From Elainellaceae cyanobacterium (GTDB lineage: Bacteria > Cyanobacteriota > Cyanobacteriia > CAZCXK01), in the NCBI GenBank assembly GCA_051117555.1, contig JBNPEG010000083.1, positions 46,172 through 62,249 on the forward strand: a stretch of DNA of 16,078 nucleotides, written 5' to 3'. The stretch's first letter is position 1; every line of letters starts with the position of its first letter. Under the pieces are notes generated by a model. It was not told the origin of the DNA. It was given only the letters and a program-made list of their open reading frames with translations, and ran no database searches. Shown here in pieces: positions 1 through 16,078 of this stretch. The position numbers were made by a program, and so were the translations under genes.

Positions 1-352
1 GCTATACGAACTATGTCTGCCGTCACAGACAATTTCTCAACCCGCGCAGGCGGGTTTCGTTCGTGTGCAATTTCAATTGCCGATTGAATGATTTGTCGTA
101 AAGGTTGTCTCTATGCCGTCCGATTAAAATCGGCGGCTACACGGACTATGTCTACCGTCGCGGACATTCTTCCCAACCCGCGCAGGCGGGTTTTGCTTGT
201 GTAGGTGCAATTTCAATTGCCGATTGAATGATTTGTCGTAAAGGTCTCTATGCCGTCCGATTAAAATCGGCGGCTATACTAACTATGTCTGCCGTCACAG
301 ACAATTTCTCAACCTGCGCAGGCGGGTTTCGTTCGTGTGCAATTTCAATTGC
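1..352. repeat. Tandem array of ~135-137 bp palindrome-rich (REP-like) units, about 2.6 copies visible, running off the left edge
   Basis: GCTAYAC..ACTATGTCT recurs at 1, 136 and 273. Units contain hairpins such as AACCCGC-GCAG-GCGGGTT, GCAATT-TC-AATTGC and CCGATT-AA-AATCGG. Confidence 0.9.
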
Positions 353-384
353 AGCAAACCCAAAAAGAATTTTTATATTTACAA

Positions 385-416
385 AGATCCCCGGTTTTTG
401 CAAAAACCGGGGATCT
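385..416. repeat. Perfect 32-bp palindrome; possible 3' end/terminator of the minus-strand TR transcript
   Basis: AGATCCCCGGTTTTTG|CAAAAACCGGGGATCT is self-complementary. The terminator role is inference. Confidence 0.75.
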
Positions 417-449
417 AAGCTTTGGATGGAATATAAGGAATATTTTGAT

Positions 450-730
450 AGAGCCAGACAACTCTTCAGCGAACTTACCAAGATATCTGGCTCTGGGTTA
501 TTTTCGGAAGGCGTTATCACCCTCACAGGAACAGGTCTGGACTCCCAGTTGTACGCCCGATAAAATCCCTTTTACCAGTTCTGACTGTTGGGAGTGCTTA
601 CGCAGACACGCACACCACCCGAAAACCAACATTGTTGTTGATGTTGTCGGGGGAGTTCCTGTTCCGATTCGCCGAACGACAGTTAATCGGATTGTTGTAC
701 CAGGAACCGCCGCGTTTTAATGCCTGCCCC
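450..730 (-). ncRNA. Putative DGR template RNA (short leader + TR + structured 3' spacer)
   Basis: Contains TR and complementary segments 723-730/528-535, 589-595/541-547, 507-524 and 450-458/486-494. No convincing ORF. Confidence 0.65.
597..715 (-). repeat. DGR template repeat (TR)
   Basis: 119-nt ungapped match to 941-1059; 14 of 15 mismatches are at minus-strand adenines of this copy. Conceptual translation RGGSWYNNPINCRSANRNRNSPDNINNNVGFRVVCVSA*, with 10 AAY codons. Confidence 0.96.
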
Positions 731-736
731 GAATGA

Positions 737-745
737 ACAATATCA
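737..745 (-). promoter_or_regulatory. Candidate extended -10 promoter for the TR RNA
   Basis: Minus strand TG-A-TATTGT (TGnTAnnnT), 6 nt upstream of the GGGGCAGG leader. No clear -35. Confidence 0.4.
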
Positions 746-856
746 CGCAATGATAGGTCATTCTGTTATTTTTTGTTGATTCGGTATGGCATGCCACATT
801 CCTACAGAGATGATGTAGCAGTCAGAAAATGGGTAAGTCTTGATCAAGAAATTTTT

Positions 857-940
857 TTGCGCGCAAAGCGCGCAAGGGAAAGAGAGCTAAAAGCGGAAGC
901 GCTGAGGGCTAAAGGGCTAAAGAGCAAAGAAAAAGGAATC
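857..940 (-). promoter_or_regulatory. DGR target cis-elements: IMH region, pyrimidine-rich tract and GC hairpin
   Basis: After the VR stop codon come GATTCC, then CTTTGCTCTTTAGCCCTTTAGCCCT, then the hairpin TTGCGCGC-TTT-GCGCGCAA (857-875). Confidence 0.7.
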
Positions 941-1059
941 CTTACGCAGACACGCACACCACCCGAAAACCAACATCGGTGAAGACGTCGCCGGGGGAGC
1001 TCCCGGACCGATTCGCCGAACGACAGAAAGTCGGATTGTTGAACCAGGAACCGCCGCGT
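941..1059 (-). repeat. DGR variable repeat (VR), 3' end of the target gene
   Basis: Encodes RGGSWFNNPTFCRSANRSGSSPGDVFTDVGFRVVCVSA*; an adenine-mutated copy of 597-715. Confidence 0.96.
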
Positions 1060-2273
1060 AGAATCCGTATATCGCTGTCTCCGCCTATGTTCCAGGCACT
1101 TCCATCCGTGGGTGCATCTTGATAATTTTCATGCCAATAATCAAGACACCATTCCAAAACAGTCCCATGCATATCAAACAGCCCAAACGCATTGGCAGAG
1201 AAACTACCGACGGGTGTTGGTTTCTCTCGATATTCTCCTTTAGGAGCTGAGCCATAGATATAGTTGCCGTTATAGTTTGCCAGGTCAGTCGTGATTGTTT
1301 CGCCAAAATGAAACGGCGTTTGAGTTCCGGCACGACAGGCATATTCCCATTCGGCTTCGCTCGGCAAACGATACTCAGTTTTAGTTTGTTGAGACAGGCG
1401 CTCACAAAAGGCAATCGCATCATGCCAACTCACGCCAACGACGGGCTTATCAGGCACAACAAAGCGGTCATTATCATATTGCGTCGCAGGATTAGTTCCC
1501 ATCACCGCTTCATACTGCGCCTGCGTGACAGGAAACTTGCCCATGGAAAATGGCGAGACATTGACCCGATGTCGAGGTAGTTCTCTTGCAAAATACGTCT
1601 GATACTTTTCTTCTCCAACTTGGCGAATCAATTCTTGCGTTTCTGCACTCGTCTGTCCTATCCAACATGTTCCAGATGGAATCTGCACCATCTCTAGCGT
1701 GACACCATTGCCCAAGTTTTCGGCAAAATATTGAGCCTGTTGGCGCTGACGCTGGATTTCTTTACCCTGTGCATTCACCTTTGCCACTTCAAAAGAAAAT
1801 GACTTTAGCGCAGATGATGAAGACGGAGTGGCAGAGACGCTAGGTGATGATGATTGCGTTGGTTTGCGTCCTGTAATACCCCAAATTAGCTGCGTCATTG
1901 GTTCAGGATGTGGTTCTCGAAAGTCTACCCAGTGAAACCCTTCCAGAAAAATTGGCAGAGTTGGCTTTACTGGAGCAGATGGTAAAAGAACGGGAATGAC
2001 AGGCAAGTCCTGCTTAACGAATGCGCGAATATAAGCACGCATCTCTCGCTTTTGCCAGGGGCCTAAGCCCGCTTCGCCTACAAACACTGCGACGCAGTTG
2101 ATTTGTCTTATCTGTTCTTCTAAAATCTCTTGCCAATCAACACCGGGTCGAAGTTCCCACACGTCAAGCCAGGGTTTGAGCTGATGGTGCCGAAGCTGTT
2201 CGGCAATTTCGATGACAGCAGGCTTATCTTCGCTGTTGTGACACAGGAAAACATCAAATTGCCGCTCGGTCAT
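942..2273 (-). CDS. TIR-domain + FGE-sulfatase (SUMF1/CLec-fold) protein; DGR target
   Basis: N-terminal FDVFLCHNSEDK...WLD.WEL.PG..WQ...WQKREM (TIR_2-like), Ser/Pro linker, C-terminal PVTQAQY, PVVGVSWHDA, YRLPSEAEWEYACRAG, NAFGLFDMHG, RGGSW, GFRVV. Confidence 0.93.
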   Translation of the reverse strand: MTERQFDVFLCHNSEDKPAVIEIAEQLRHHQLKPWLDVWELRPGVDWQEILEEQIRQINCVAVFVGEAGLGPWQKREMRAYIRAFVKQDLPVIPVLLPSAPVKPTLPIFLEGFHWVDFREPHPEPMTQLIWGITGRKPTQSSSPSVSATPSSSSALKSFSFEVAKVNAQGKEIQRQRQQAQYFAENLGNGVTLEMVQIPSGTCWIGQTSAETQELIRQVGEEKYQTYFARELPRHRVNVSPFSMGKFPVTQAQYEAVMGTNPATQYDNDRFVVPDKPVVGVSWHDAIAFCERLSQQTKTEYRLPSEAEWEYACRAGTQTPFHFGETITTDLANYNGNYIYGSAPKGEYREKPTPVGSFSANAFGLFDMHGTVLEWCLDYWHENYQDAPTDGSAWNIGGDSDIRILRGGSWFNNPTFCRSANRSGSSPGDVFTDVGFRVVCVSA

Positions 2274-2785: not shown

Positions 2786-4087
2786 ATGACATTTGATACC
2801 CTCGGTCTTTCGACCGATTTGCTTCGTGCGGTTGCCGATGAGGGCTACACCACACCAACACCCATTCAGCAACAAGCTATTCCTGCAATTTTAGACGGCC
2901 ACGATATCTTCGCGAGTGCGCAAACGGGCACAGGCAAAACGGCTGGATTTACGCTGCCGCTGCTGCAACGCCTTAGTTCTGCTCACGGCACGGGGCATCG
3001 TGCTCCGCGCGCGCTCATCTTGACTCCGACTCGCGAACTGGCAGCCCAGGTCAGTGACAGCGTCAAAACCTACGGCAAATATTTGTCTCTCAAGTCGGCA
3101 GTGATCTACGGCGGCGTCGGCATGAATCCGCAAGTTCAAGCGCTGCGACGCGGAGTTGATATTGTGGTCGCCACACCAGGTCGATTGTTGGATCATGTCG
3201 GGCAAAAGACCCTCGACCTTTCGCATATTGAGATTTTGGTGTTGGATGAGTGCGATCGCATGTTAGACATGGGCTTCATCCGCGACATCCGCAAAATTTT
3301 GGCCTATATGCCCGCTGCTCGGCAAACGCTGATGTTTTCTGCTACTTTTTCTAAAGCAATTCAGCAGCTTGCTGGCACGATTCTCACGGCTCCAACCCAG
3401 ATTGAAGTCGCACCCCGCAATACCGCTGCTGAGCAAGTCGAGCAAGTGGTTCATCCGGTGGATAGCAATCGCAAACGAGCGCTGCTGTCTTACATGATCG
3501 GCTTCCACAATTGGAAACAGGTGCTAGTGTTCACGCGCACTAAGCACGGTGCGAATCGTCTAGCCGAACAACTCGCTAAAGATGGGCTGAAAACTACCAC
3601 AATTCACGGCAATAAAAGTCAGGCAGCCCGCACCCGTGCCCTCAAAGACTTTAAGCAAGGAAAGGTTCGTGTCTTAGTTGCAACCGACGTCGCATCGCGG
3701 GGTTTAGACATTGACCAACTGCCTCATGTGGTAAATTTTGATCTGCCTAATGTTCCGGAAGACTATGTGCATCGTATCGGTCGCACGGGGCGTGCAGGCA
3801 ACGAAGGGCGTGCTGTCTCTCTCGTGTCAACGGATGAATATCCGCTGCTAAAAAGCATCGAGGCGTTGCTCAACCGAACGCTGACCCGAGATGTAATTCC
3901 AGGCTATGAACCCACGTCTTCATTTCAGTCTGAGGCTGATTCATCTAATTCTCAGCGTTCTAAAAAGCGTCGCGGTTCTAAATCAACGCCTCGCCCTCAA
4001 ACTGCCTCTCCGCGCCGCAAGAAATCTGCCGCCGACGGAAATCGCAAACACAAACGGTTCGCAAATCAGACACAGCGAGGGCTTTAA
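2786..4087 (+). CDS. rhlE: DEAD-box RNA helicase, RhlE/CrhC-like
   Basis: Q motif [50 protein letters not shown]; basic C-terminal tail. Confidence 0.92.
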
Positions 4088-4089
4088 TC

Positions 4090-4317
4090 ATGTGGCGGGT
4101 GATCATTCAATGCTCGGCTGAGAGTTGGCGCAATCATGCCAAAACGTTTAACTCGATTGCTGAAAACTGTGCAGCACTACCCATTTCGTCTAAAAAGATG
4201 AAAGACGACGAGCGTCGGCTGATGGAATATCAGGTTGATTCGGTCAATGAGGCTGAAGAATTTGTGGAAGAATGCCTCACGCTGGAGGGGTTCACGGCCA
4301 CCTTTGAAGCCCTATAA
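4090..4317 (+). CDS. Small hypothetical protein (75 aa)
   Basis: ATG lies 2 nt after the helicase stop; the ORF fills the gap to convergent ruvC; protein-like composition. Confidence 0.6.
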   Translation: MWRVIIQCSAESWRNHAKTFNSIAENCAALPISSKKMKDDERRLMEYQVDSVNEAEEFVEECLTLEGFTATFEAL

Positions 4318-4329
4318 GACGAGGTAGAA

Positions 4330-4818
4330 TCATAGCTGAAACCAGGCTGCAAGGGCGATCGCCAGCGCATCTGCTGCGTCATCCGGGCGGGGAATCGCCT
4401 CTAGGTTTAGCTCCCGAGCTACGGCTTCTTGTACGGCATATTTATCAGCATTGCCGTAGCCGGTCAGGGCTTGTTTGACCTGAGCGGGGGTAAACTCCAC
4501 AAACGACAGGTTGTGCTGGGCTAACACGAGCAAAATCACCCCTCGCGCTTGAGCCACCTGGATTGTATTTCCCATGCGGTAGAAGAAGAGTTTCTCGATG
4601 GCAACCAAATCAGGCTGACAGTGCTCAAGCACCTGATTTAAGTCTTCATAGATGGTGCAGAGTCGTTTTCCCGTCTCAGTATGAGCGGGGGTTTGAATCA
4701 CACCAAAATCAAGCGGTGAGACAGTCGGAGGAGCTTTTATATCAGCACAGCACTGAATTGCTCCGAAGCCCACAATTGCAAGACCGGGATCTAACCCGAG
4801 AATGCGCGTTTTCACCAT
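4330..4818 (-). CDS. ruvC: Holliday junction resolvase RuvC
   Basis: [41 protein letters not shown] motifs. Confidence 0.96.
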
Positions 4819-4890
4819 TTTGAACGGTTTCGTTGAAGGCTGAGTCTTGAGTGTACACGAGGGAGTATGAGATCGGTCTGCATCAGACTC

Positions 4891-4932
4891 TATATAACAG
4901 TGCGTATATAACAGTGCGTATGTAACAGTGAG
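4891..4932. repeat. 14-bp tandem repeat x3
   Basis: TATATAACAGTGCG TATATAACAGTGCG TATGTAACAGTGAG in the divergent intergenic region. Confidence 0.85.
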
Positions 4933-5052
4933 TCGATTGCGACAGTCTTGACGAAACGCTTCCGACTAAGATAAAAATTTGAGCCAGATTAAAGATCAAA
5001 GTTAATGATCTAGAAGATAGCGCTGTGCAATGGGTTTTTCGGGAGGTTATGC

Positions 5053-6294
5053 ATGTCTGTTATTTCACTTTTGACCGTCGATGGCGATCGCCTCAATCAC
5101 AATCTTGATACCTTGGCAGAAATTGGAAAATTACCGAGAGGAGGCGTTCGGCGCATTTCCTTTAGCCCTGAAGACCAGTTAGCTCGGCACCTCGTTGCCA
5201 ACTGGATGCGCGAAGCAGGCATGTCAGTGCGCACTGATGCCGCAGGCAACATCATCGGCACCTATCCAGGCAAAGCCGCTCTCCCCGCCTTTGCCACCGG
5301 ATCTCATATTGACACCGTTCCCTCAGCCGGACGCTACGACGGCACACTTGGAGTGTTGGCAGGCATCGAAGTCGTGAGAACCCTCAACGAAAATAACATC
5401 ACGCTGAATCATCCTATTGAAGTGATTGTCTTCACTGACGAAGAAGGCAGCATGATTGGCAGTAAAGCCATGACAGGCAGCATGAAACCCGATCCAGACG
5501 CCTATCATCGCAAAGACGGCACCTCGATTCAAACGTGTCTAGAAGTCATTGAGGGCGATTGGGAGACTCTCCACACAGCTCAGCGCACGAGTGATGAAAT
5601 TGCCGCATTTATTGAACTCCACGTCGAGCAGGGGGGAGTTTTAGAAGCAACCGGAACTCAAATCGGGGTCGTCGAAGGGATTGTCAGCCTCAATCGATTC
5701 ACCATCACGGTATTAGGTCGCCCTAATCACGCAGGTACGACGCCCATGCATGCGCGCCAAGATGCACTGGTGGCTGCGTCTCACATTGTGCTCGCAGTCG
5801 AAGATTTGGCGAAGAACTCCCCTGGCGATCAGGTTGCCACAGTCGGCATGCTCAACGTGTTGCCGAATGCGGCCAACATTGTGCCGGGGCAGGTCGATCT
5901 AAGCCTCGATATTCGTGATTTGTCGCAAGAGCACGCGGATAGCCTCGTCGCTCAACTCAAGCAACGCTTAAAGCAGATTGCTGAACAAACGGGCACCACT
6001 ATTACTGTTGAGCAACTACTGCGGGTAGAACCAACCTTGGCAAAACCCCGCATCCAAAGGGCGATCGCTCAGATTGCCCAAGACTTTGGATTGAGCTACT
6101 GCATGCTGCCTAGTCGCGCCGGACACGATGCTCAAGAAATTGGGCGATTCACCGACATGGGAATGGTTTTTGTGCCTAGCATTGGCGGCATCAGCCATGC
6201 TGAAGATGAATACACCTCTCCAGAACAGTGCACCCAAGGGGCTAACATATTGCTAAACGCGTTTATGCGCTTAGATGACGAGTATACGTCTTAG
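5053..6294 (+). CDS. M20 family Zn-dependent hydrolase (allantoate/N-carbamoyl-amino acid amidohydrolase)
   Basis: GSHIDTV, GRYDGTLGV, DEEG, ELHVEQG, NHAGTTPM, AGHDAQ, GISH motifs; GGAGG ribosome-binding site. Confidence 0.92.
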   Translation: MSVISLLTVDGDRLNHNLDTLAEIGKLPRGGVRRISFSPEDQLARHLVANWMREAGMSVRTDAAGNIIGTYPGKAALPAFATGSHIDTVPSAGRYDGTLGVLAGIEVVRTLNENNITLNHPIEVIVFTDEEGSMIGSKAMTGSMKPDPDAYHRKDGTSIQTCLEVIEGDWETLHTAQRTSDEIAAFIELHVEQGGVLEATGTQIGVVEGIVSLNRFTITVLGRPNHAGTTPMHARQDALVAASHIVLAVEDLAKNSPGDQVATVGMLNVLPNAANIVPGQVDLSLDIRDLSQEHADSLVAQLKQRLKQIAEQTGTTITVEQLLRVEPTLAKPRIQRAIAQIAQDFGLSYCMLPSRAGHDAQEIGRFTDMGMVFVPSIGGISHAEDEYTSPEQCTQGANILLNAFMRLDDEYTS

Positions 6295-6330
6295 CGCAAT
6301 GCACATTAACCGCACTCTGGAGTGTTCATT

Positions 6331-6792
6331 ATGCGCTCAAAGTCTTCAATTCTCCAGCCCACGTTAGCGCCGGGTCAACTGCGCCGGGTTCATCACATCG
6401 CGTTGAATGTCAGCGATATGAACGCATCGCGTCACTTCTATGGCAACATTTTGGGGCTATATGAACTAACCGGCGAGGAGATTCCTGAAACCCTGAAAGA
6501 ATTAGTCGAAACGGGCAAAGTGGCTAACTTTGTTACCCCAGACGGCACGGTGCTTGATTTGTTTTATCGTCCGGAACTATCTCCCCCCGACCCCGACCCC
6601 GAAACGCCATTTACTCGCGCCGGGCATCTCGCATTTGATATTGATCCGGCTTTATTTGATCAGGCCGTTGAGGTGATTCGGCAGCATTCCATTCAGATTG
6701 ACCACGGGCCGGTGAGTCGCCCTACTGGTCGAGGCATTTATTTCTATGATCCAGACGGGTTTTTAGTCGAAATTCGCTGCGATCCGCAGTAG
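6331..6792 (+). CDS. VOC/glyoxalase family protein
   Basis: VHHIALNV, HLAFDI, IYFYDPDGFLVEI. ATG at 6331 is preferred because it follows GGAG. Confidence 0.88.
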   Translation: MRSKSSILQPTLAPGQLRRVHHIALNVSDMNASRHFYGNILGLYELTGEEIPETLKELVETGKVANFVTPDGTVLDLFYRPELSPPDPDPETPFTRAGHLAFDIDPALFDQAVEVIRQHSIQIDHGPVSRPTGRGIYFYDPDGFLVEIRCDPQ

Positions 6793-6819
6793 ATGCAGAG
6801 ATAGATTTTGCCCACATCA

Positions 6820-8118
6820 TTAAGCGGCATGAGGTTCTAACGAATCGTCGTGCCGCCCTAATAGCAGATAGGTCGTCATCAAGCCTTTGCCTTTGACATC
6901 GATCGTACCCCGCCTTTCGACCTGGTAGCGATCGCCCAATCGCTCATAGACCGCCGGAGTTACCTGGATGCAGCCCGCAATTCCCTGAGATTCCATGCGA
7001 CTTGCCACATTAACCGCATCTCCCCATAAATCGTAAATAAATTTCTTTCGACCAATCACGCCTGCGATGACGGGTCCGGTGTTGATGCCAATGCGGAGCT
7101 GGAGGGGTTGATTCTCCTGAGTCTTAAACTGGGCGACGATGTGCTGCATGTCTAGGGCGAGTTCAGCAACCGCTTCAACGTGGTCGTTCCGTTCGATGGG
7201 CAGTCCGCCCACCACCATATAAGCGTCCCCAATGGTCTTGATTTTCTCTAAGTTGTGACGTTCAACCAGTTGGTCGAAGGTAGAAAATACCCGATTGAGT
7301 AAGTCAACCACATCATGGGGCGGCACGCCTGCCGATAATCGAGTGAAACCAACAATATCAGCAAACAAGACCGTTGCTTCGGCAAAACTGTCGGCGATGA
7401 TGCGCTGCTCTTGTTTGAGTTTTTCGGCGATCGCTTCCGGCAAAATATTGAGTAGCAACCTTTCCGATTTTTCTTGTTCGGCTTCTAATCGGCATCGCGC
7501 TTCAAACTCAGACTTTTGAAGCTGCTCGTATAAATACACAGCCAAATTGCAGATCGCGCAAAACCAAAATACGTAGAGGGCTTGCCGACCGTTCCACAAG
7601 GTTCCATTGCGAGGAGATAGACCGAATACTGAATTAACGCCAAAATAGTAAATCAATACGCCCAGTTGAGACACTAAATGCAAGGGCCAACGGACTGGAA
7701 TCAATGTTGATTGGGTTAAAAACACCAGCGTCCAGGAAAAGAGCCCAGGAAACGCGATCTGCTGTAATGTTGCCCAAATCTGCTCAACTAGCGTGATCGA
7801 CCAAGACGCTCCTAAAAAAAGAACAGCCGGATGCTGCTGCCCAAATGATGTGTATTGGAGGAGTAGGCACAATACTAAGCCAAGCTCCGCTGTGATTGCC
7901 ATCACCAGCCAAGAGAAGTCCCACTCGGCAGTCATGATGCCATGAACCGCTCTAAGCAAAATAAATGTGAAATATGCAACGATCGCGATCGTCAGCCCGA
8001 GTCGGATGCGATTTAACATAAACCGCCGTCGCCATGACTGATACGCTCTATTCGAAGGGGACTGAACGACTCCCGAAGACGCTGCGTCTAGATAAGACGA
8101 TAATTCTGAATTTCCCAC
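6820..8118 (-). CDS. Membrane-bound class III adenylate cyclase
   Basis: About 6 hydrophobic segments, ERLLLNILP helix, VLFADIVGFT, EKIKTIGDAYM, YDLWGDAVNVASRMES (the K/D pair indicates ATP specificity). Confidence 0.92.
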   Translation of the reverse strand: MGNSELSSYLDAASSGVVQSPSNRAYQSWRRRFMLNRIRLGLTIAIVAYFTFILLRAVHGIMTAEWDFSWLVMAITAELGLVLCLLLQYTSFGQQHPAVLFLGASWSITLVEQIWATLQQIAFPGLFSWTLVFLTQSTLIPVRWPLHLVSQLGVLIYYFGVNSVFGLSPRNGTLWNGRQALYVFWFCAICNLAVYLYEQLQKSEFEARCRLEAEQEKSERLLLNILPEAIAEKLKQEQRIIADSFAEATVLFADIVGFTRLSAGVPPHDVVDLLNRVFSTFDQLVERHNLEKIKTIGDAYMVVGGLPIERNDHVEAVAELALDMQHIVAQFKTQENQPLQLRIGINTGPVIAGVIGRKKFIYDLWGDAVNVASRMESQGIAGCIQVTPAVYERLGDRYQVERRGTIDVKGKGLMTTYLLLGRHDDSLEPHAA

Positions 8119-8289
8119 AGGTGCCCCTGACTGAATACGTTGTAGAAAAATCTAAACTATGACCTGCTCCAAACGTGGCGCTTTTCCTGACGGAGAATCA
8201 CCGTTCTGAAAATGGACACAGCCTATCAGTATTCAGCGCTGTATGGCATTTAGTATAGCCTGGCCATGCATTCGACGACGACACCAGCG

Positions 8290-8835
8290 TTATCCATCGG
8301 CCTCTTCAAAGGCTTTTAGAGGGAGCGATCGCCGCAATTCGATTAATTCATCTCGGTGAGCCGTTACCGTGACCAAACTGTAGTTGATGTGATGTTCATC
8401 TTCGACTGCCTCAATGCTCAAAGAGACTTGCTCCGGACGCCCTGCCTTCCGCCAATAAAATATACCTGCCAGGGGTGACAGCACCAAAAGCCCCGGAAAC
8501 AGAGACGCCCAGTCTGGGAAAAGCATCGCTAACACCAGCACCAAACACAAAATACCAATCCCGGCTAATACGCTCAGAAAAATTGCCAAAAATACGCTAG
8601 GACGCACAAATCCCTCAAATGTGACCCGGTTTTCAGACGAGTCAACGGATGCGATTCGATACGAGCGTTGAGCAAAATAGCGTTGAAGCTGCTCCAAAAG
8701 CGTATCGCGTTGCTGATCGGCAATCAGTTTGGCGACTTGAGTGCGGTCTTTGGCGGAGGCTCGAATAAAGAAAAACAGCCCAACGGCTAGCAGCAACGTC
8801 AGGAAGAAAGTTGAAGAAAGGACAGACACCTGCAT
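8290..8835 (-). CDS. Cofactor assembly of complex C subunit B (CCB1/DUF3529-like)
   Basis: STFFLTLLLAVGLFFFIRAS.KDRT N-terminus, two further TM segments, AHRDELIEL C-terminus. Confidence 0.8.
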   Translation of the reverse strand: MQVSVLSSTFFLTLLLAVGLFFFIRASAKDRTQVAKLIADQQRDTLLEQLQRYFAQRSYRIASVDSSENRVTFEGFVRPSVFLAIFLSVLAGIGILCLVLVLAMLFPDWASLFPGLLVLSPLAGIFYWRKAGRPEQVSLSIEAVEDEHHINYSLVTVTAHRDELIELRRSLPLKAFEEADG

Positions 8836-8959
8836 AAGAATAGTGAGTCAATTGGACGAGATTAATCACAACCGATGAGTGACGAAAACATTAGCCACCC
8901 TGTCCTATTCTGCCAAGATTTTCTGTCAAAAGTTTAAGAAATATTAATTAGCGATCGCC

Positions 8960-8995
8960 CGCATCTCATTTCGCATCTCATTCCGCATCTTATTT
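8960..8995. repeat. 12-bp tandem repeat x3
   Basis: CGCATCTCATTT CGCATCTCATTC CGCATCTTATTT, adjoining the stop codon at 8994. Confidence 0.8.
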
Positions 8996-9254
8996 AGGTA
9001 TGGCGATTGACCTCGCTCTGCAACCACGGATCAACAGGTTGACCATCTTTTCTGGAAAGCTCGATCTCAATGACCATCACTAAGTCAGACCCAGGCGGGG
9101 CAGGCCGTTGATGAAACGTAATGTCATACTCTTGAGGGTCATATTGCCGCTCTTTGAGCCAATCTTGCACCTTAGTGGTCGCAAAAAAAGATTGCCCCTG
9201 CTCAAACATTCGAGTGATTTGCATTTGCAGGGTAAAAGGATCAAGTCGAGCCAT
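8994..9254 (-). CDS. Hypothetical protein (86 aa), probably conserved in cyanobacteria
   Basis: ATG-started ORF co-oriented with its neighbours; globular-protein composition. Confidence 0.75.
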   Translation of the reverse strand: MARLDPFTLQMQITRMFEQGQSFFATTKVQDWLKERQYDPQEYDITFHQRPAPPGSDLVMVIEIELSRKDGQPVDPWLQSEVNRHT

Positions 9255-9381
9255 GATTCTAACTGTCGTGTAACCAGCGTGTATACCAGAAAATGGGAGA
9301 GCAGACGCACCAATCTGAGTCTGTCCTTATATTGATTATTCTCCCATGTTCCTCAAGGCTACGCGACTATAGGATGTCTGT

Positions 9382-9425
9382 TTATGGAGACAGAGATTAT
9401 GGAGACAGAGATTATGGAGACGGAG
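9382..9425. repeat. 15-bp tandem repeat x3 including the stop codon of the DUF4168 gene
   Basis: TTATGGAGACAGAGA at 9382 and 9397; TTATGGAGACGGAG at 9412. Confidence 0.85.
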
Positions 9426-9951
9426 TTGGAGTCGAACTCGTCTGAGTGTCCGCATCTTGGGACTCAGATTGCAGCCGTCTCAATTCATCCTGGATACGAG
9501 ACGCTAAGCCTGAATCTGACTGCTGGGTTGCAGTAATGGTATTGAACTGCATGATGGTTAAATTGTTTCGTTCAACAATGCGAATTGATTGCGTGCAGTA
9601 ATCGACGACGATATCTCGAATACTTTGGTTAAGATTTCGCAGAGTGTCAGGCTCATGGCAGGCAACGGGCGGCACTTGGCCAGAGTCAGATAGGTTCCGA
9701 ATCTGGGCATAGGCAATGCGTCTAATTTCTTCAATTTCCTGCACCGAGCGGGCATAGTTACGCACCTGTTCGTTAGAAATATCTTGCTGTGCATGGGCTG
9801 CACCGCTCAAGGGGGGAGCAGATGACTTCAGATTTAGACTGGGGACACCTCCTGCGAGCAGCCCACCCGAGGAGATTAGCGTCACGAGTAAGGTTCGAGA
9901 AAGTAAACGCTTCATATTAAATCGAGACAGGTAATACGACGATGTAACCAT
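9412..9951 (-). CDS. DUF4168-domain exported protein (start uncertain: 9915, 9951 or 9960)
   Basis: Signal-like segment ending AHAQ, then NYARSV..IE..R, YC..S..IVE.NNLT...FN.IT. Confidence 0.78.
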   Translation of the reverse strand: MVTSSYYLSRFNMKRLLSRTLLVTLISSGGLLAGGVPSLNLKSSAPPLSGAAHAQQDISNEQVRNYARSVQEIEEIRRIAYAQIRNLSDSGQVPPVACHEPDTLRNLNQSIRDIVVDYCTQSIRIVERNNLTIMQFNTITATQQSDSGLASRIQDELRRLQSESQDADTQTSSTPTPSP

Positions 9952-10038
9952 AGAACACACGATTGGCTAAAAGGGCAAGCAGAAAATTGCTTCGATTTAT
10001 TATGTGAATTATTTTCTGAGTCAGAAGTTCCGATTTCT

Positions 10039-11043
10039 CTATCGTCTTCGTTTGGATTTTGAAGATGGGTAGAGTTGGCAAAGCTGAATCACTCGGGTCT
10101 GTATGGTCGATAGTGCGTCAGCACCGCGTTTAAGGTCAACCTCTAGCTCAAGCAATATGGGAAGCGTGCGCCTTAATGAATCTAAAGAAAGGGGCTCGAC
10201 ATCTCGCTGCAAGAAGTAAACTCGCTTAGGATTGCCTACTTCTGCTGCCCGGGCGATCGCCTGAATATCGCGCTCTCCAGACTCTACCATGACCTTGACC
10301 CACAGCCATGTGCGGAACTGATTAGTCACGGTGGTCACAATTCTTAGGGCTGGTTCGTTCTGACTAAACAAGTCAGAGATTAGAGTGAGAGCCTGAGACG
10401 CATCACCCTGGCGGATAGCAGTCGCAAGCTGAAGACTGCTTTGGGTGGATGTGGTCACTAGTTTAGCAACGGTGTCTGCTTCGACAACCGATTGAGGCAA
10501 CCCCGCATAGAGCTTTAATTTTTCGAGTTCATTAAACAGTTGCCGAGTATTATTACCGATTGCATCGGCTAAGCAGTGAGTGGCCTCCTGACTGAGTTTA
10601 ACGCCAACATCGGCGGCTGCCCGATGAACTGCTTTGATGAGTTGGTCAGTCTTCCACGGAGGGATAACCGGAAACTCTCGAATTTCAGCATATTTTTGCA
10701 GCAATTTCGTCGATTTGAGCCGACCATCTGGTTTTTGGCTCATGGTGATCAGCAACACAGAGGTATCGGGAATTGCGGGTAAGGTGCGTTCCAGTTCAGA
10801 CAAAAGAGAGTCTGGGCATTTTTGGCCTAGAGTGGTGTTAGGAAGCCAAACGAAGCGATCGCCCGTGCCAAAGGGCGGGGTCATGACTTGATTTAATGCC
10901 TGAATGACTGGATCGGCACTTTCAGGAGAAATTTTGTGGTAATTAAAACTGGCCCATTGGGGGTCTAACGTGCGATCGCGCAGTGCATCAACCGATCGTT
11001 CAATTGTAAAGTCATCGTCACCCCAGTATACGTAAATCGGCAT
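10039..11043 (-). CDS. holA: DNA polymerase III subunit delta
   Basis: MPIYVYWGDDDF, TPPFGTGDR.V, KPDGRLKSTK, L.NELEKL.LY, NEPALRIV, GNPKRVYFL. Confidence 0.92.
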   Translation of the reverse strand: MPIYVYWGDDDFTIERSVDALRDRTLDPQWASFNYHKISPESADPVIQALNQVMTPPFGTGDRFVWLPNTTLGQKCPDSLLSELERTLPAIPDTSVLLITMSQKPDGRLKSTKLLQKYAEIREFPVIPPWKTDQLIKAVHRAAADVGVKLSQEATHCLADAIGNNTRQLFNELEKLKLYAGLPQSVVEADTVAKLVTTSTQSSLQLATAIRQGDASQALTLISDLFSQNEPALRIVTTVTNQFRTWLWVKVMVESGERDIQAIARAAEVGNPKRVYFLQRDVEPLSLDSLRRTLPILLELEVDLKRGADALSTIQTRVIQLCQLYPSSKSKRRR

Positions 11044-11284
11044 ATGGCAATCTTAGATGGGTTGTGAGCGGTGGGGCGGGCTGAGCCTGCGTATGTATTT
11101 AGCGTAACGCCCTAGAGATCCCCCTAAATCCCCCTTAAAAAGAGGGACTTCAGCAACCTGTAGATAGCCCCCTTTTCAAGGGGGCAGCGACAGCGGGGGA
11201 TCAGCGGGGGATCTTACGCGCTAAACATATACGAGCCTGCCCCACCGCTCACATATAAGTCACAAGCGATTTAGGATCGCTATA
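11043..11284. mobile_element. TA-flanked MITE (IS630-like ends) carrying a nested insertion
   Basis: Imperfect terminal IRs TATGGCAATCTTAGATGGGTTGTGA / TCACAAGCGATTTAGGATCGCTATA; an uninterrupted relative lies at 13348-13433. Confidence 0.8.
11091..11232. mobile_element. 142-bp MITE with 8-bp target-site duplication
   Basis: GAGCCTGC at 11083-11090 and 11233-11240; IRs GTATGTATTTAGCG / CGCTAAACATATAC (12/14); CCCCCTAAATCCCCCTT..GGGGGAT core. Confidence 0.85.
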
Positions 11285-11462
11285 GATATTAATGAACACT
11301 AAAATCTAGCGAGTTCATTTATTTTAATGGGTGATGCAACTCACAGAAAATGATAGGGTCTGTTTTGCAATGATCTGACGTTTCCAATAATTCTCGATAG
11401 ATTAGGAAAACGACGGAAATGGGTACGACTCTTCACCGTTTAGAATAGCGAGGCGAACGAAC

Positions 11463-12251
11463 GTGGACGACATTTATCAGGTCTATGTTAATCGGGTTGC
11501 GCGAATGACATTGCCAGAGGCATATCAGTCTCAGGTGCAATATATTCAAGCGTCGCCCAAGTTTCAGCAGCAACCGGACGGTGACGTTGAGCCGATTCCA
11601 TTTCCGGGCTATTCGGTGATTACGCCCCCTTGGAGCGATGATTCTAAAAATACAGGCTTGTATGAAACCCTGCGCGACTTTCAACACCGCGTTGGCAAGG
11701 AGTTAACGCCAGGGTTGGCGACATTAGTGCCTCCCGAAAGTTTTCACATGACGCTGGCTGATCTGATCTGGGATAGCGGCTACCGCCTCGCAGCAGAGCA
11801 GACCGATTTTGATCACCAACTGCGCGATCGCATCGCCCAAAGCTTTCAACACTGTCAGACGTCGGTCAAGGGCGAGCCTCCAATTTGTTGGCAGGTCTTG
11901 GGGCTGATTGTGATGGCTCGGGCGATCGCCGTGTGTTTGGCTCCACGCAATGAGCAATCCCATGACCGGATTGTCAAGTTGCGCCGCTCGATTTATCAAA
12001 ATCCAGACATCATCGCGTTAGGGATTGAGCAGCAATACCATTTCACAGGTCATATCACGCTGGGATATTTTACAGATGTGTCGGTGGTGTCTGATCCGCT
12101 CGATCTAATTTCGACACTCAATCAATTGAATGAACAGTGGCTGTCAATTGATTCACCTCAAGAGCTGGTGATTCACCGAGCAGAACTCCGAAAGTTTGAA
12201 GATATGACGCATTATTATCGAGAACCAGACTGGCCCGTCCTTGAGTTTTGA
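11463..12251 (+). CDS. DUF1868-like 2H phosphoesterase-fold protein
   Basis: PFPGYSVITPP and two HxT motifs (SFHMTLADL, GHITLGYF). Confidence 0.8.
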   Translation: MDDIYQVYVNRVARMTLPEAYQSQVQYIQASPKFQQQPDGDVEPIPFPGYSVITPPWSDDSKNTGLYETLRDFQHRVGKELTPGLATLVPPESFHMTLADLIWDSGYRLAAEQTDFDHQLRDRIAQSFQHCQTSVKGEPPICWQVLGLIVMARAIAVCLAPRNEQSHDRIVKLRRSIYQNPDIIALGIEQQYHFTGHITLGYFTDVSVVSDPLDLISTLNQLNEQWLSIDSPQELVIHRAELRKFEDMTHYYREPDWPVLEF

Positions 12252-12311
12252 ACACCTTCCTTTTGCAGTAACGGCAAAGAAAGTGCCGTGTAAGCCTCTG
12301 ATATAACGAAC

Positions 12312-13337
12312 TTAATTCTGGATGAACAAAAGAGAAAACCCACCTATGTAGAGCAGCGGAATCAAAAAGCTTTCAAAGCCGATGTTGCCAATTCCATGTT
12401 CTTCACGGCGCAACAGCCCCAGCAGGAGGATGCCCGTCATCAAAATCGTCAGAGCAATAATAAATGTCTGCGATGCCGTCAGCGCATGGTAGATCGAGCC
12501 AGTCCGATAGGCGATATCTGAAAACGCAACAAATAACACGTCAAAGCTATTGCCCCCGATGATGTCTCCAACAGCAAGGGTTAAAGCGCCTTGCCGCACG
12601 GCAGCTATTGATGTCACAAGTTCGGGCAACGACGTAGAGACAGCCGTAAATAGGCCGCCCACCACCGTTTCAGACAACCCAGTTTGGTCAGCGATCGCCG
12701 ATCCAGTCCGGGCGACGACATAGCCGGCACCGCCAATCATCGGAGCATACATTGCCAATCGAATCCACAGCCCAGTCGCGCTGGTGCCAGACTCTAGATC
12801 TTCTTCAGGTTCATCAACGCGAGTCTCAGACGTGCGCCTCGGTGCCCACATGGGCATTTCTCGCGCACTCGATACTAAGCGCAGCCCGAAGATATAGGCA
12901 ATTGGCAACGCAAACGATATTGGATGAATCCCCCAGATGCTAACCTGCGGAGAAGACGCTGCTAGCAAAGGAAACGCAAGCAGGCTGACAAGCAGTGTCC
13001 CTTGAGACAGGTTTGCGGCAGAGGCGGCGGCATGCTCTAGATTCGCTTGGGGATAGACAATATCGGCTAGGGCAAGAAACGCCGTTTGCGCTGCGATGCC
13101 GCCGAGAGCATTGCTAATCGACAGTTCAGGATGCCCAGTTGCCGCAGCCGTGACCGATGTGACAATTCCTGGCAGAGAGGTCGTGCCGCCGAGAAATAGT
13201 GCCCCAACCACTGCCTCACCGAGTCCTGTTTTATCGGCGAGACGGTCGGCGACTCTCGTCATCCGTATCCCAACTACGCCAATCACAAAGGCTGCAACAA
13301 TAAATAGCCCGATGTTGAGAGTAAGAGAATTAAACAT
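12312..13337 (-). CDS. Sodium:calcium antiporter (CaCA family)
   Basis: Two alpha-repeat motifs, GTTSLPGIVTS and STSLPELVTS..A...GDIIGGN; about 10 TM segments. Confidence 0.92.
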   Translation of the reverse strand: MFNSLTLNIGLFIVAAFVIGVVGIRMTRVADRLADKTGLGEAVVGALFLGGTTSLPGIVTSVTAAATGHPELSISNALGGIAAQTAFLALADIVYPQANLEHAAASAANLSQGTLLVSLLAFPLLAASSPQVSIWGIHPISFALPIAYIFGLRLVSSAREMPMWAPRRTSETRVDEPEEDLESGTSATGLWIRLAMYAPMIGGAGYVVARTGSAIADQTGLSETVVGGLFTAVSTSLPELVTSIAAVRQGALTLAVGDIIGGNSFDVLFVAFSDIAYRTGSIYHALTASQTFIIALTILMTGILLLGLLRREEHGIGNIGFESFLIPLLYIGGFSLLFIQN

Positions 13338-13347
13338 TATCAGATTC

Positions 13348-13433
13348 TATAGCAATCCCAGATGGGTTGTGAGCGGTGGGGCGGGCGGCGCCTGCTGGTC
13401 ACACACAATTTACAAGCGATTTAGGTCGCTATA
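13348..13433. mobile_element. 86-bp TA-flanked MITE, same family as 11043-11284
   Basis: TATAGCAATCCCAGATGGGTTGTGAGCGGTGGGGCGGGC ... ACAAGCGATTTAGGTCGCTATA. Confidence 0.8.
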
Positions 13434-14153
13434 TCAGCAGCTAAAACTTTAGTCCTGCGAGCGATCGCCCAAGGAGCAACCAGTCAATGACTGCCTGTGT
13501 AGTTTATCTGAGCGATCGCAAAAGCGGTATCAATTTGGTGTTTTCAACGATATAGGTTTTCAACGATACAGAGCGTATGCGCTACATACCTCAAATTTTG
13601 CTGAATGAGAGCGCAAACTCAGCTTCGCAGAATGCCACGATAGCTCTACTACACGCGTTTCATCCATCTAAAGGAGTTGGCTAAAAGGTAGAGGAGAATT
13701 AGCCAAACAGTAGAGATAATATCACGTCAAAATCTGTAATCTATATTTATGATCTCGCAAAATCGAACTGGAGCAGCAAGGCAATTAGCAATCTGGTTGC
13801 GTTCCTATGCTGATCGTTCAAATATGACTGCACCAGAGCTATCCCACGGAGGGATGCTAATTGCAAATGAATCAGCGTCTGCGGCCCTTGAGACACTCCA
13901 ACCATTTCCTGTTATCAGATTGGGGTGTGCCTCTCAAACCATAAATCAAGGAATACAGGATTTACTGCGATAAAGCTCAAGCCTGATAAAAGCATGGATG
14001 GGCAGTGCTTAGAGCGATCGCCATTCTCATTGGAGACTCATGTACTTTTTAGTATGTCTGATGCTAGCAATCCTTTCAGGTATCGTAAATCCAAGCCCGA
14101 TCAGGCTTACTCAGTCGTACTTCGAACACAATTCATACGCAAGGAATGACATT

Positions 14154-14512
14154 ATGAAACAGCAGCTTAAACGACTACTCTGGCTTATGTCGGGCGTCCT
14201 GCTGACATTAGGCATAATTTTTCTTAATCGTCCTTCAACAGCTCAACTTAATATCGATGATCCATTTGCAAATGAAGGATTGATCTATGCAGTGACCGCT
14301 ACCAATCCTGCTGTGATTCGCCAGGTAACCGGAGATGTAACCAATCAGGTTCAAAATGTTGTCGCAGAACCTGTTGATTCATTTGCTTGGGATGGTGAAG
14401 GTGTAACTCCTATTTCGGGAATCGCTCGGTGAGTAGTCGATCCCGTTACCAACACGGGTGAGTTAGTCGCAACCCGGTCTGACGAATATGGCGACTGGAG
14501 ATTGAGTCAAAG
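14154..14512 (+). pseudogene. Probable pseudogene of an exported protein
   Basis: AAGGA ribosome-binding site, signal peptide MKQQLKRLLW..STA-Q, TGA at 14430-14432. The frame continues protein-like (VVDPVTNTGELVATRSDEYGDWRLSQ) and then runs into an inverted repeat. Confidence 0.55.
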
Positions 14513-14555
14513 GCAAATATCTCTCTTCTACCTGTGCTAGAGGAGAGATATTTGC
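14513..14555. repeat. 18-bp inverted repeat with 7-nt loop
   Basis: GCAAATATCTCTCTTCTA-CCTGTGC-TAGAGGAGAGATATTTGC, one mismatch. Confidence 0.8.
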
Positions 14556-14605
14556 GAGTCATCATAGGATTGCTAGACATACTTCACAGGCAGGAACGGA
14601 AACAA

Positions 14606-14699
14606 TATAGCGGCATGTATTTGGGGTAAGTACGATGGTGTGGGCCGCGCCGCGCCCATACCACCGTTTCTGTACGTGACGCAATTGCACATTGCTATA
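14606..14699. mobile_element. Degenerate TA-flanked MITE-like element
   Basis: TATAGC...GTAC / GTAC...GCTATA symmetric ends and central hairpin GGTGTGGGC..GCCCATACC. Confidence 0.6.
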
Positions 14700-14790
14700 A
14701 ATACCCATCAATGCCGTGGTAGAGGTGGCTTGCGTTCAAATAGTGTCTTCGTATAGATGGCAACGATGGGAGTTGTGGCGATCGCCTATT

Positions 14791-14896
14791 TATACCAATT
14801 CTCGGTTTTGGATTTGCGATTTTGGATTGACGGCCATCAGCCTTGCAAGGGTTCTAGCCTGTTCATTTGTAGCCTTACTTTGAAGAATTGGGATTA
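14791..14896. mobile_element. Degenerate MITE-like element
   Basis: Ends TATACCAATTCT / AGAATTGGGATTA; internal heptamer repeats TTGGATT/TGCGATT. Confidence 0.45.
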
Positions 14897-15133
14897 CCCA
14901 CTTACCTAGTTTAATAGGCTCTATGCAATATTCCTGTAGGGAAAGTTTGCAAACCTATAAAATTCTCAAGGATCTCGTAATCTTTTTTCGAAGGAACCAT
15001 CCCGATTTGAAGCATACGGGCAGAAAATCTAATCAGACTAGCTTGTTTGATTCCGTGCAGCTCGTCATGTCATGAGAAAGCTTTCAATCATGATCATGTA
15101 TAGCACCCGCCAAGTTCTCTGGATGGTTCACGC

Positions 15134-15271
15134 GGGCGCATGTCACTTTTGTAGCCCTCACCCTAAATCCCTCTCCCAAAGCGGGAGAGGGACTTCAATC
15201 CGGCTCCCCTTCTCCCGCTTGGGAGAAGGGGTTGGGGGATGAGGGCAAATTTGCAAAGGTGACATGTTCCC
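15134..15271. mobile_element. 138-bp MITE with 9-bp target-site duplication
   Basis: GGTTCACGC at 15125-15133 and 15272-15280; IRs GGGCGCATGTCACTTTTTG / CAAAGGTGACATGTTCCC; CCCTAAATCCCTCTCCC..GGGAGAGGG hairpin core. Confidence 0.88.
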
Positions 15272-15341
15272 GGTTCACGCCGGATAGCGTTCCCCGCTTT
15301 GGCGTCCAATTAGAGGTCATGTCCTAGGCAATTGGGCTAAT

Positions 15342-15384
15342 GCTATCAGTAATGGCTATCAGTAATGGCTATCAGTAATGGCTA
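15342..15384. repeat. 13-bp tandem repeat x3 abutting the IS630 left end
   Basis: GCTATCAGTAATG at 15342, 15355 and 15368, then GCTA. Confidence 0.85.
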
Positions 15385-15957
15385 TAGCAACCTAAAATAG
15401 GTTTTGAACAAACATTAGAATGAGGAGGAGTCGTTAAAGAGCATTTTAGACAAACTGATGGAGACCCTTGAACAGTTTATTGAGAGCAACCCGAAGCCCC
15501 GAGAACTCAAACGTGCTGTTGCCGTGCAAATGAGTCAACGAGGCCATACCTATCGAGAAATCCGTGATGTGCTTCAGGTGTCGCTCGGGTTTGTGACCGC
15601 TTGCTGTCAGCGCTATGAGGAGCAAGGGGTGAAGGGTCTCAAGTTGAACTACTGGGGAACGCAGGGCTATCTTAACCCCAAACAGAAGGAAGAACTGATG
15701 GTCTGGTTGGCTCAGAAGGATGCTTGGTTACTGGAGGAGGTGGTTGAGCATATCGAAGACGCTTATGGCGTGGTTTACCAATCCTCCCAGAGCTACTACA
15801 CGCTACTGAAGCAAGCCGGATTCAGTTGGAAAAAGTCACACTCAACCCACCCGGATAAAGATGAGACGCAGGTGGAGGAAAAAAAACTGAAATCATGGAA
15901 TTACTGGTGCAGTGGCGGGCCGAAATTGCTGCTGGCAATGTCCGAGTGATGTTCTTA
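15383..15957 (+). mobile_element. IS630-family element, left part (interrupted)
   Basis: TA + TAGCAACCTAAAATAGGTTTTGA left end, followed by an HTH transposase ORF. Confidence 0.85.
15458..15957 (+). pseudogene. IS630 transposase N-terminal part; -1 frameshift at an A8 run, then interrupted
   Basis: RELKRAVAV, YGVVYQS.QSYY.LL..AGFSWKK. The A-run at ~15879-15886 leads in the -1 frame to TEIMELLVQWRAEIAAGNVRVMFL, which breaks just before the expected catalytic D. Confidence 0.85.
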
Positions 15958-16078
15958 GGATCGTGGATTAAATAAGCTGTAATTCCACCTTCTGCATCTG
16001 TAAGCTAGAGAAGTAGACGATGAGCCGGAAAACCAATGCGCCCCTACCCTGCTCCCATTGAAGCTCAAATGCAACGGT
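15958..16078 (+). mobile_element. Left end of a second IS, probably ISAzo13 family
   Basis: Begins GGATCGTGGATTAAATAAG after TTA. The ORF from ATG 16036 (MRPYPAPIEAQMQR...) resembles ISAzo13-type transposase N-termini from memory; only 14 codons are visible. Confidence 0.55.

Follow-up and report, generated by a model that had tools for sequence, protein, structure and literature searches.

Can a diversity-generating retroelement (DGR) that consists only of a target gene and a template RNA still be at work, and if so, which enzyme would serve it? The question is raised by a locus in the draft genome of an Elainellaceae cyanobacterium (6.06 Mb in 256 contigs; G000 in our sample). In the window, by which we mean the whole 16,078-nucleotide stretch analysed (C81:46172-62249, on a 62-kb contig of which the 46 kb to the left were also open to inspection), a gene for a TIR domain joined to a lectin fold ends in the variable repeat (VR) of a DGR and is followed by a template repeat (TR) and a structured spacer RNA (Sp), with no gene for a reverse transcriptase (RT) or for Avd. 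We conclude that this locus is probably a non-autonomous 'satellite' DGR cassette, made up of the TIR-lectin target, a VR with its flanking signals and a private DGR RNA, and lacking an RT and Avd of its own. A sequence-only reading of the same DNA had proposed such a module; the private TR, the intact RNA elements, the distant RT-Avd pairs of the genome and a clade of RT-less relatives support it, and service in trans is what we infer from those relatives and from the anatomy of the locus.

Target gene, repeat pair and template RNA

The two repeats (591-715 and 935-1059) lie 344 nt apart and are 86% identical. Within their 115-nt core (VR 1059-945, TR 715-601), 14 of the 26 TR adenines are changed in the VR, against one of the 89 other sites; put differently, 14 of the 15 mismatches stand at TR adenines (Fisher p = 3.6e-10). 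Of the 26 TR adenines, 25 occupy the first or second position of their codon, which in most cases is AAC. The repeats are a DGR template/variable repeat pair. The protein that the VR would diversify has a TIR domain at residues 8-129 (Pfam TIR_2, E = 1.5e-25) and a C-terminal FGE-sulfatase / C-type-lectin-fold domain at residues 194-439 of 443 (Pfam E = 1.2e-51). The pair is also private within the genome: the only VR matching the window TR is the window's own (87% identity), the two other TRs of the genome reach at most 66% identity to the window VR, and the window TR is 76-78% identical to those other TRs. The coordinates of these and the other features are collected in Table 1.

The VR ends in an adenine-free stretch identical to the TR, with a GC hairpin (GCGCGC, a 3-nt loop, GCGCGC) further on. 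The order of pyrimidine repeats, GC hairpin and A/T run is common to nearly all listed VRs, at full and RT-less loci, so the target side of the system looks intact; the flanking element may terminate transcription, serve in homing, or do both. In the 60-odd related loci the pyrimidine motif 3' of the VRs occurs in several copies of ~8 nt, CCCTYTTG-like, and the hairpin loop has 3-4 nt. Between the stop codon and the start of the TR homology there are ~225 bp, which had been judged too short for Avd and indeed hold no Avd-sized open reading frame (ORF).

Table 1. Cassette features and adjoining elements, in window coordinates
Feature	Position	Strand	Remarks
Target gene, 443 aa	942..2273	-	TIR + FGE-sulfatase domains
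VR	945..1059	-	Last 38 codons of target; stop codon 944-942
VR-flanking element	857..941	-	Pyrimidine-rich repeats 941-876, GC hairpin 857-875, A-then-T run ~845-856
Candidate TR RNA promoter	737..779	-	TGATATTGT at 745-737, hexamer TATTGT 742-737; consensus scan
Alternative promoter pair	TCAACA 779-774, TATCAT 755-750	-	18-nt gap; consensus scan
Stop duplex, 5' strand	723..730	-	GGGGCAGG, pairs with CCTGTTCC at 535-528
TR, non-coding	601..715	-	VR homology reaching ~720 and ~596
Sp part of DGR RNA	445..600	-	Covariation, 6 and 57 loci
TR:Sp duplex	589-595 with 541-547	-	Part of Sp structure
9-bp stem, GGGA tetraloop; candidate Avd-binding stem-loop	557-578	-	Predicted fold
Stem-loop, then A-run	507-524; 498-506	-	Predicted fold
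Long hairpin	451-493	-	Predicted fold
Perfect 16+16-nt palindrome	385..416		Possible TR RNA end
Hairpin-rich ~136-nt repeat array	1..355		Continues left of window

From the TR onwards the window resembles the complete DGRs of the same genome, with 80% identity over 714-402 to the TR and downstream region of the DGR on contig C116 and 71% to that on C8. RNAalifold on six loci gave 47 pairs, of which 21 show compensatory changes. With 57 loci, 93.5% of the cells in the structure are paired and 39 of the 47 pairs have changed on both sides; none of 500 shuffles scored as high, and sliding the partners by 1-3 columns left 34-47% paired. (The 57 rows derive from the 66 loci described below by dropping four at contig edges, two VR/TR fusions, one on a long branch and two with truncated RNA.) The stop duplex alone (helix 1 of the 57-locus structure) has eight pairs, six of them compensatory, with 91% of the cells paired. 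All but one of the 47 modelled pairs are present in the window (46), a count that is favoured by the structure having been drawn on the window's own sequence. RNAalifold had paired the G-run at the 3' end of the TR with ACCTG; this was replaced, since the upstream-downstream duplex covaries and matches a published element.

The text of a preprint on DGR RNA describes an upstream-downstream 'cPRT Stop' duplex, a TR:Sp duplex and a stem-loop with a GNRA loop, such loops being prevalent in Cyanobacteriota (bioRxiv 10.1101/2023.10.23.563531). Judged by its covariation, the structured spacer after the window TR is a conserved DGR RNA, and the predicted fold supports the view that the cassette keeps every RNA element known to be needed by a DGR RT-Avd complex. 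The VR/TR homology stops exactly at the start of the TR:Sp duplex (595-589 with 547-541), as would fit priming at that point.

An extended -10 element had been noticed ahead of the TR, and comparison with the relatives supports it as a candidate promoter: its hexamer lies 6 nt ahead of the G-run, and a TANNNT hexamer ending 4-10 nt before the G-run is present in 33 of 57 loci, compared with 2-10 of 57 in shifted control windows. Separate transcription of a TR RNA is described in the text of a study on Trichodesmium, in which the RNA is abundant, 265 nt long and has its own start (PMC4143802), and high expression of TR RNA in that of a study on Nostoc punctiforme (PMC12691664). The palindrome at 385-416 may act as the terminator; it failed a terminator scan that demands a T-run.

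RT-less cassettes and the enzymes of their genomes

Neither RT nor Avd was found on the 62-kb contig, including the 46 kb to the left of the window. An RVT_1 profile run over the genome matched only on C116, C8 and C222, with nothing on C81, and tblastn with the resident RT and Avd proteins gave no match within 5 kb on either side of the cassette (E < 1e-5). An RT just beyond the window, which the earlier reading had kept as an option, is therefore not present on this contig. Of the features of a DGR, the cassette has the adenine signature, the lectin-fold VR and the structured RNA, and it has neither its own RT nor its own Avd.

Elsewhere in the genome the profile search yielded two intact RT + bAvd pairs, as the proposal of a borrowed enzyme would have it. 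The DGR on C116 comprises a Pepco gene, a caspase-lectin target, a bAvd of 114 aa, an RT of 352 aa, a TR and spacer RNA; that on C8 has a lectin target, a bAvd of 117 aa, an RT of 363 aa, a TR, spacer RNA and a second target. Both RTs are open frames with the motifs YVDD and IGNLTSQ, and the SQ motif is a mark of DGR RTs. The C116 TR has a single VR in the genome, and the C8 TR has two local VRs and a remote one at C177:27833-27963, which lacks a TR and is 88% identical to the C8 TR with 15 of 16 mismatches at adenines. Because this VR without a TR matches the C8 TR, action in trans by the C8 element is visible in the genome itself.

Other traces of DGRs in the genome are less complete. C222:56-1030 (L018) holds a truncated RT ORF of 185 aa, covering the first half of RVT_1 only, and a split gene of the 23S-rRNA-IVS type (Avd-like) placed back to back with it, both adjoining an 8-nt tandem array of CCCTCATC in ~12 copies; the RT fragment was rejected as a partner, with no TR/VR repeat nearby. 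A lectin gene on C180 has no good match to any TR. At C89:187-500 (L036/L059), on the minus strand, the adenine-poor, VR-like 3' end of a lectin-fold gene passes directly into the conserved spacer RNA, a separate TR being absent; this looks like the outcome of a VR-TR recombination that deleted everything between; ~100 nt further, at the contig start, is a sequence judged by eye to be tRNA-like.

We propose that an RNA of ~290-345 nt would start near 730 on the minus strand and fold into the conserved DGR RNA architecture, and that the RT-Avd complex of the C116 or C8 DGR would bind it and copy the TR into adenine-mutagenised cDNA, which would then replace the VR 344 nt upstream. Transcription, binding of a foreign RT-Avd complex and present-day activity at the window are what we infer from these sequence elements.

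The cassette is one of many. A covariance model of the TR 3' end and spacer RNA (R1) was built on six loci, one of them the window's. Of the 151 genomes of the class that were sampled, 40 had a match to it, with 66 strong loci in all; the C116 RT used as a query on the same 151 genomes (E <= 1e-25) matched 26. Within 5 kb, full-length avd and RT accompany 32 of the 66 loci, RT or Avd fragments only are found at 10, no trace of RT or Avd at 19, and five are too near a contig end upstream; two of the 19 no-trace loci (G148:C266 and G000:C89) have less than 250 nt of contig downstream. In 12 of these 19 a VR lies 150-300 nt upstream of the TR (to ~650 nt in G138:C100), and its mismatches are mostly adenine-only. 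Near-closed assemblies, too, have this RT-less layout on contigs of chromosome scale, G116:C1b being one example. Further cassettes of template and target without an RT, for which the earlier reading had suggested a search, do exist, and the general statement that remote targets usually lack a TR of their own fits this group poorly, given the 19 of 66 TR-RNA loci without RT.

An IQ-TREE phylogeny of the 66 RNA regions divides them into two clades with 99/98 support, the bootstrap being not fully settled. Clade I (24 rows) contains 16 of the 19 RT-less loci, that of the window included, together with one remnant, one edge locus and six full loci; clade II (42 rows) consists mostly of full loci. 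The window falls in a subclade of five rows from three families (98/83 support), all RT-less. Typically, a genome has full loci of clade II along with RT-less loci of clade I, as in G000, G001, G009, G014, G116, G135 and G138. Loss of a downstream avd-RT is one route to the RT-less layout, because the order is VR-TR-Sp-avd-RT in two full loci, G055:C1 and G133:C5, and RT-less G138:C58 keeps an RT fragment downstream. Alternative full architectures were seen at G055:C1, G133:C5, G141:C106 and G066:C4 (L133, L125, L114, L127), avd-RT lying downstream of the spacer RNA in two of them and upstream of the TR on the opposite strand in the remaining two. We incline, if only slightly, to the view that the RT-less loci represent an old cyanobacterial lineage of 'template + target' cassettes without RT or Avd, forming an RNA clade of its own and served in trans by RT-Avd of the other clade. 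If so, one enzyme pair would run several privately templated hypermutation repertoires, here for a protein that joins a TIR effector to a lectin-fold sensor.

Evidence for the service of such cassettes comes from pairs of relatives. Synteny on both sides links the RT-less loci G001:C4 and G111:C37, which are 84% identical in the target gene and 76% in the downstream flank. The two TRs agree at all 125 sites. Between the VRs there are 19 differences, 17 of them at TR adenines, and each VR equals its TR at nearly all non-adenine sites. This points to upkeep of both VRs, because an unserved VR would drift like the rest of the gene. (G111:C37, L088, also carries a ~1.2-kb insertion relative to G001:C4, located 228-1436 nt past the point where the spacer RNA begins and without similarity to RT or Avd.) The TRs of G116:C1b and G133:C1 differ at 26 non-adenine sites, and at 25 of these the VR of each locus agrees with the TR of that locus. 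Between the TRs of the window and of the RT-less locus G093:C3 there are 14 such sites; the window VR agrees with the window TR at all 14, and the G093:C3 VR with the G093:C3 TR at 12. Gene conversion cannot explain such tracking, because adenine differences would vanish too; the VR-TR match kept in RT-less pairs despite 16-24% flank divergence implies service in trans. It is for these related cassettes only that the sequence comparison amounts to showing a VR rewritten in the RT-less state. For the window, rewriting in the RT-less state is suggested by parsimony, with a subclade RT-less in five of five rows, and by the 14 of 14 tracking sites. A further comparison, G148:C266 with G135:C169, was weakened as proof of rewriting in trans, as the G148 contig ends 244 nt past the RNA and derived TR changes lie mostly on the G148 side.

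Downstream of the TR, the structured region (600-445), the palindrome and the repeats had been described as free of any RT, and this holds: palindrome, repeat array and a Y1 transposase sit where some relatives carry avd-RT. The array also occupies C81:44978-46171, on either side of an IS200-like Y1 transposase ORF (C81:45250-45744; 164 aa, Pfam Y1_Tnp, E = 3.2e-23), an arrangement that we take to resemble the repetitive extragenic palindrome (REP) arrays around RAYT-type transposases. Searching the genome with window positions 1-1100 gave 25 matches, mostly to the repeat part, and one ~136-nt repeat unit comes after the spacer RNA in the C116 DGR as well. Left of the cassette, the repeat array and the transposase are joined by pentapeptide-repeat genes and others. 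On the target side, positions 2786-16078 encode a DEAD-box helicase, RuvC, an M20 peptidase, a glyoxalase, an adenylate cyclase, CCB1, a DUF4168 protein, the DNA polymerase III delta subunit and a Na/Ca exchanger, with a helix-turn-helix (HTH) protein of the transposase-N-terminus type at the contig end.

A satellite or a remnant

Several results weigh against a cassette that is old and still served in trans, or are neutral. Both complete DGRs of the genome, the source of the resident RTs, fall in RNA clade II and the window in clade I, so that compatibility of an RT with the window RNA is an assumption. Among the 17 genomes with RT-less cassettes, seven gave no DGR RT and one more a truncated RT only; in an RVT_1 recheck of five of the seven, matches were absent, fragmentary or high-scoring in long ORFs, the last being presumably group II intron RTs. 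Full loci have a median of 2 broken RNA pairs; for RT-less loci the median is 3 if the genome has an RT and 2 if no DGR RT was found in it. An intact fold is thus no proof of current use, because RNA integrity is equal across the classes, and integrity was dropped as a test of function for want of a class difference. Non-adenine mismatches at RT-less loci number 0-3 in genomes with an RT (and 13 at one decayed locus) and 2-6 in those in which no RT was found, overlapping ranges that are not decisive. In the window itself, the lone non-adenine mismatch of the core is a T to C change that turns codon ATT into ACT. A metagenome scan for the window's TR-Sp junction gave 0 matches. VR/TR fusions occur at the window's sister and closest relative, G063:C57, as well as at G000:C89, both presumably made by repeat recombination. 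In the same-genus genome G002, C40 (L041:5950-6300) carries an orthologous target from which ~498 bp of spacer, TR and Sp are missing; the gap, relative to window 435-939, lies exactly between two copies of the 7-bp ATTCCTT. At its 3' end the G002 VR is identical to the window over 37 nt and the rest differs at many non-adenine sites; no DGR-type RT was found in the G002 genome. The same-genus genome G003 (61% complete) gave no match, and neither of these two genomes supplied a TR orthologous to that of the window. Finally, the old RT-less state of the window line rests on parsimony, and independent recent losses are possible, as the position of avd-RT downstream of Sp at G055:C1 and G133:C5 and the downstream RT remnant of G138:C58 go to show.

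Much of this would also be expected of a decaying relic, in which avd-RT, probably once downstream of the spacer RNA, was lost recently, so that the VR is no longer rewritten while the pattern and the fold have yet to erode. The clade relatives with the order VR-TR-Sp-avd-RT and the one downstream RT remnant speak for such a history, as do the single non-adenine mismatch in the window, the collapsed sister and C89 loci, the loss of the TR from the G002 ortholog, the equally kept fold at RT-less loci of genomes without an RT, and the replacement of RT genes by repeat arrays described in the text of the Thiohalocapsa study (PMC10907252). We nonetheless regard the relic, the main rival, as unlikely: no remnant of RT or avd is detectable within 5 kb at E < 1e-5, the window subclade is RT-less throughout, the window VR tracks its own TR at every informative site in the comparison with G093:C3, orthologous RT-less pairs have kept their TR-VR match while their flanks diverged, and the same genome holds two intact RT-Avd pairs and a working relation in trans. 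Far less probable is an assembly artefact, with an adjoining RT and avd misplaced on another contig or left unassembled. The draft state of the genome, the window's position at a contig end and the truncated RT on C222 invite the idea, but the cassette is embedded in contiguous sequence with ordinary genes, which extends for 46 kb beyond Sp and for 15 kb beyond the target, avd-RT of the relatives lies within 2 kb of the TR, and the RT-less layout recurs in near-closed assemblies such as that of G116:C1b. Nor do we give credence to an ordinary partial duplication or gene-conversion tract without any retroelement, next to an unrelated small RNA. Direct repeats 225 bp apart can recombine and evidently did so in C89 and G063:C57; however, the mismatches are adenine-specific at the p value given above, conversion would erase adenine differences, and the downstream RNA is homologous to the post-TR RNA of 32 avd-RT loci. 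A satellite cassette served in trans therefore remains our preferred reading of the window.

Comparison with known systems

The canonical DGR of Bordetella phage BPP-1 (mtd-VR, avd, TR, brt) shares with the window an adenine-specific TR/VR pair and a lectin-fold domain that has the VR at its 3' end. Unlike BPP-1, the window has neither avd nor RT on its contig, and its TR RNA directly follows the target with a promoter-like element of its own. The RNA bound by bRT-Avd, as presented in the preprint's text (bioRxiv 10.1101/2023.10.23.563531), has the GNRA-loop stem-loop, the upstream-downstream duplex and the TR:Sp duplex that are predicted for the window.

Cyanobacterial DGRs with remote targets are known from Trichodesmium erythraeum IMS101 (PMC4143802) and from a survey of 52 cyanobacterial genomes (PMC7517822). 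According to the text of these reports, their targets are modular lectin-fold proteins including TIR fusions, as in the window, their TR is a separate and abundant small RNA, and their RT acts at distant sites. The remote targets described there share the TR of the RT locus, whereas the window target has a private, diverged TR and RNA. The survey took a gene for a remote target if it shared 50% identity or more with the DGR's VR, and the word 'TRs' is absent from its main text (PMC7517822). 'Remote targets' assigned by loose similarity to an RT-linked TR may own a TR.

The 'degenerate' loci of Thiohalocapsa PB-PSB1 are likewise RT-less beside complete loci, with MITE-like arrays (miniature inverted-repeat transposable elements) at the place of the RT, and their diversification is ascribed in the article's text to action in trans on TIR and conflict-system targets (PMC10907252). 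Their VRs are reported to match the TR of the complete locus of the same class, as far as the text of that article goes (its figures or supplement may show TR copies of their own), whereas the window TR is private and the window's cassette type makes up an RNA clade of its own across many families. That DGR parts supplied from plasmids act in trans is reported in the text of an experimental study (PMC5758913). Conserved RT-less cassettes whose TR RNAs are private and diverged and make up a clade of their own did not turn up in the article texts that we searched.

In such cassettes the information part of a DGR, template RNA and target, would be separated from the enzyme, which suggests a modular 'one enzyme, many private templates' arrangement for intracellular conflict sensors. 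DGR finders anchored on the RT would miss RT-less templates and, if the lineage is as supposed, would credit their targets to a TR that is not theirs; the R1 covariance model offers a direct route to a census of DGR RNAs. The cassettes also provide a natural test of RT-Avd specificity, since within single genomes one enzyme seems to serve diverged RNAs from two clades. Non-autonomous retroelements in general pair a non-coding RNA module with an enzyme encoded elsewhere. The window cassette would be analogous to them, with the difference that its product would be a rewritten segment of a host gene and no new copy of the element.

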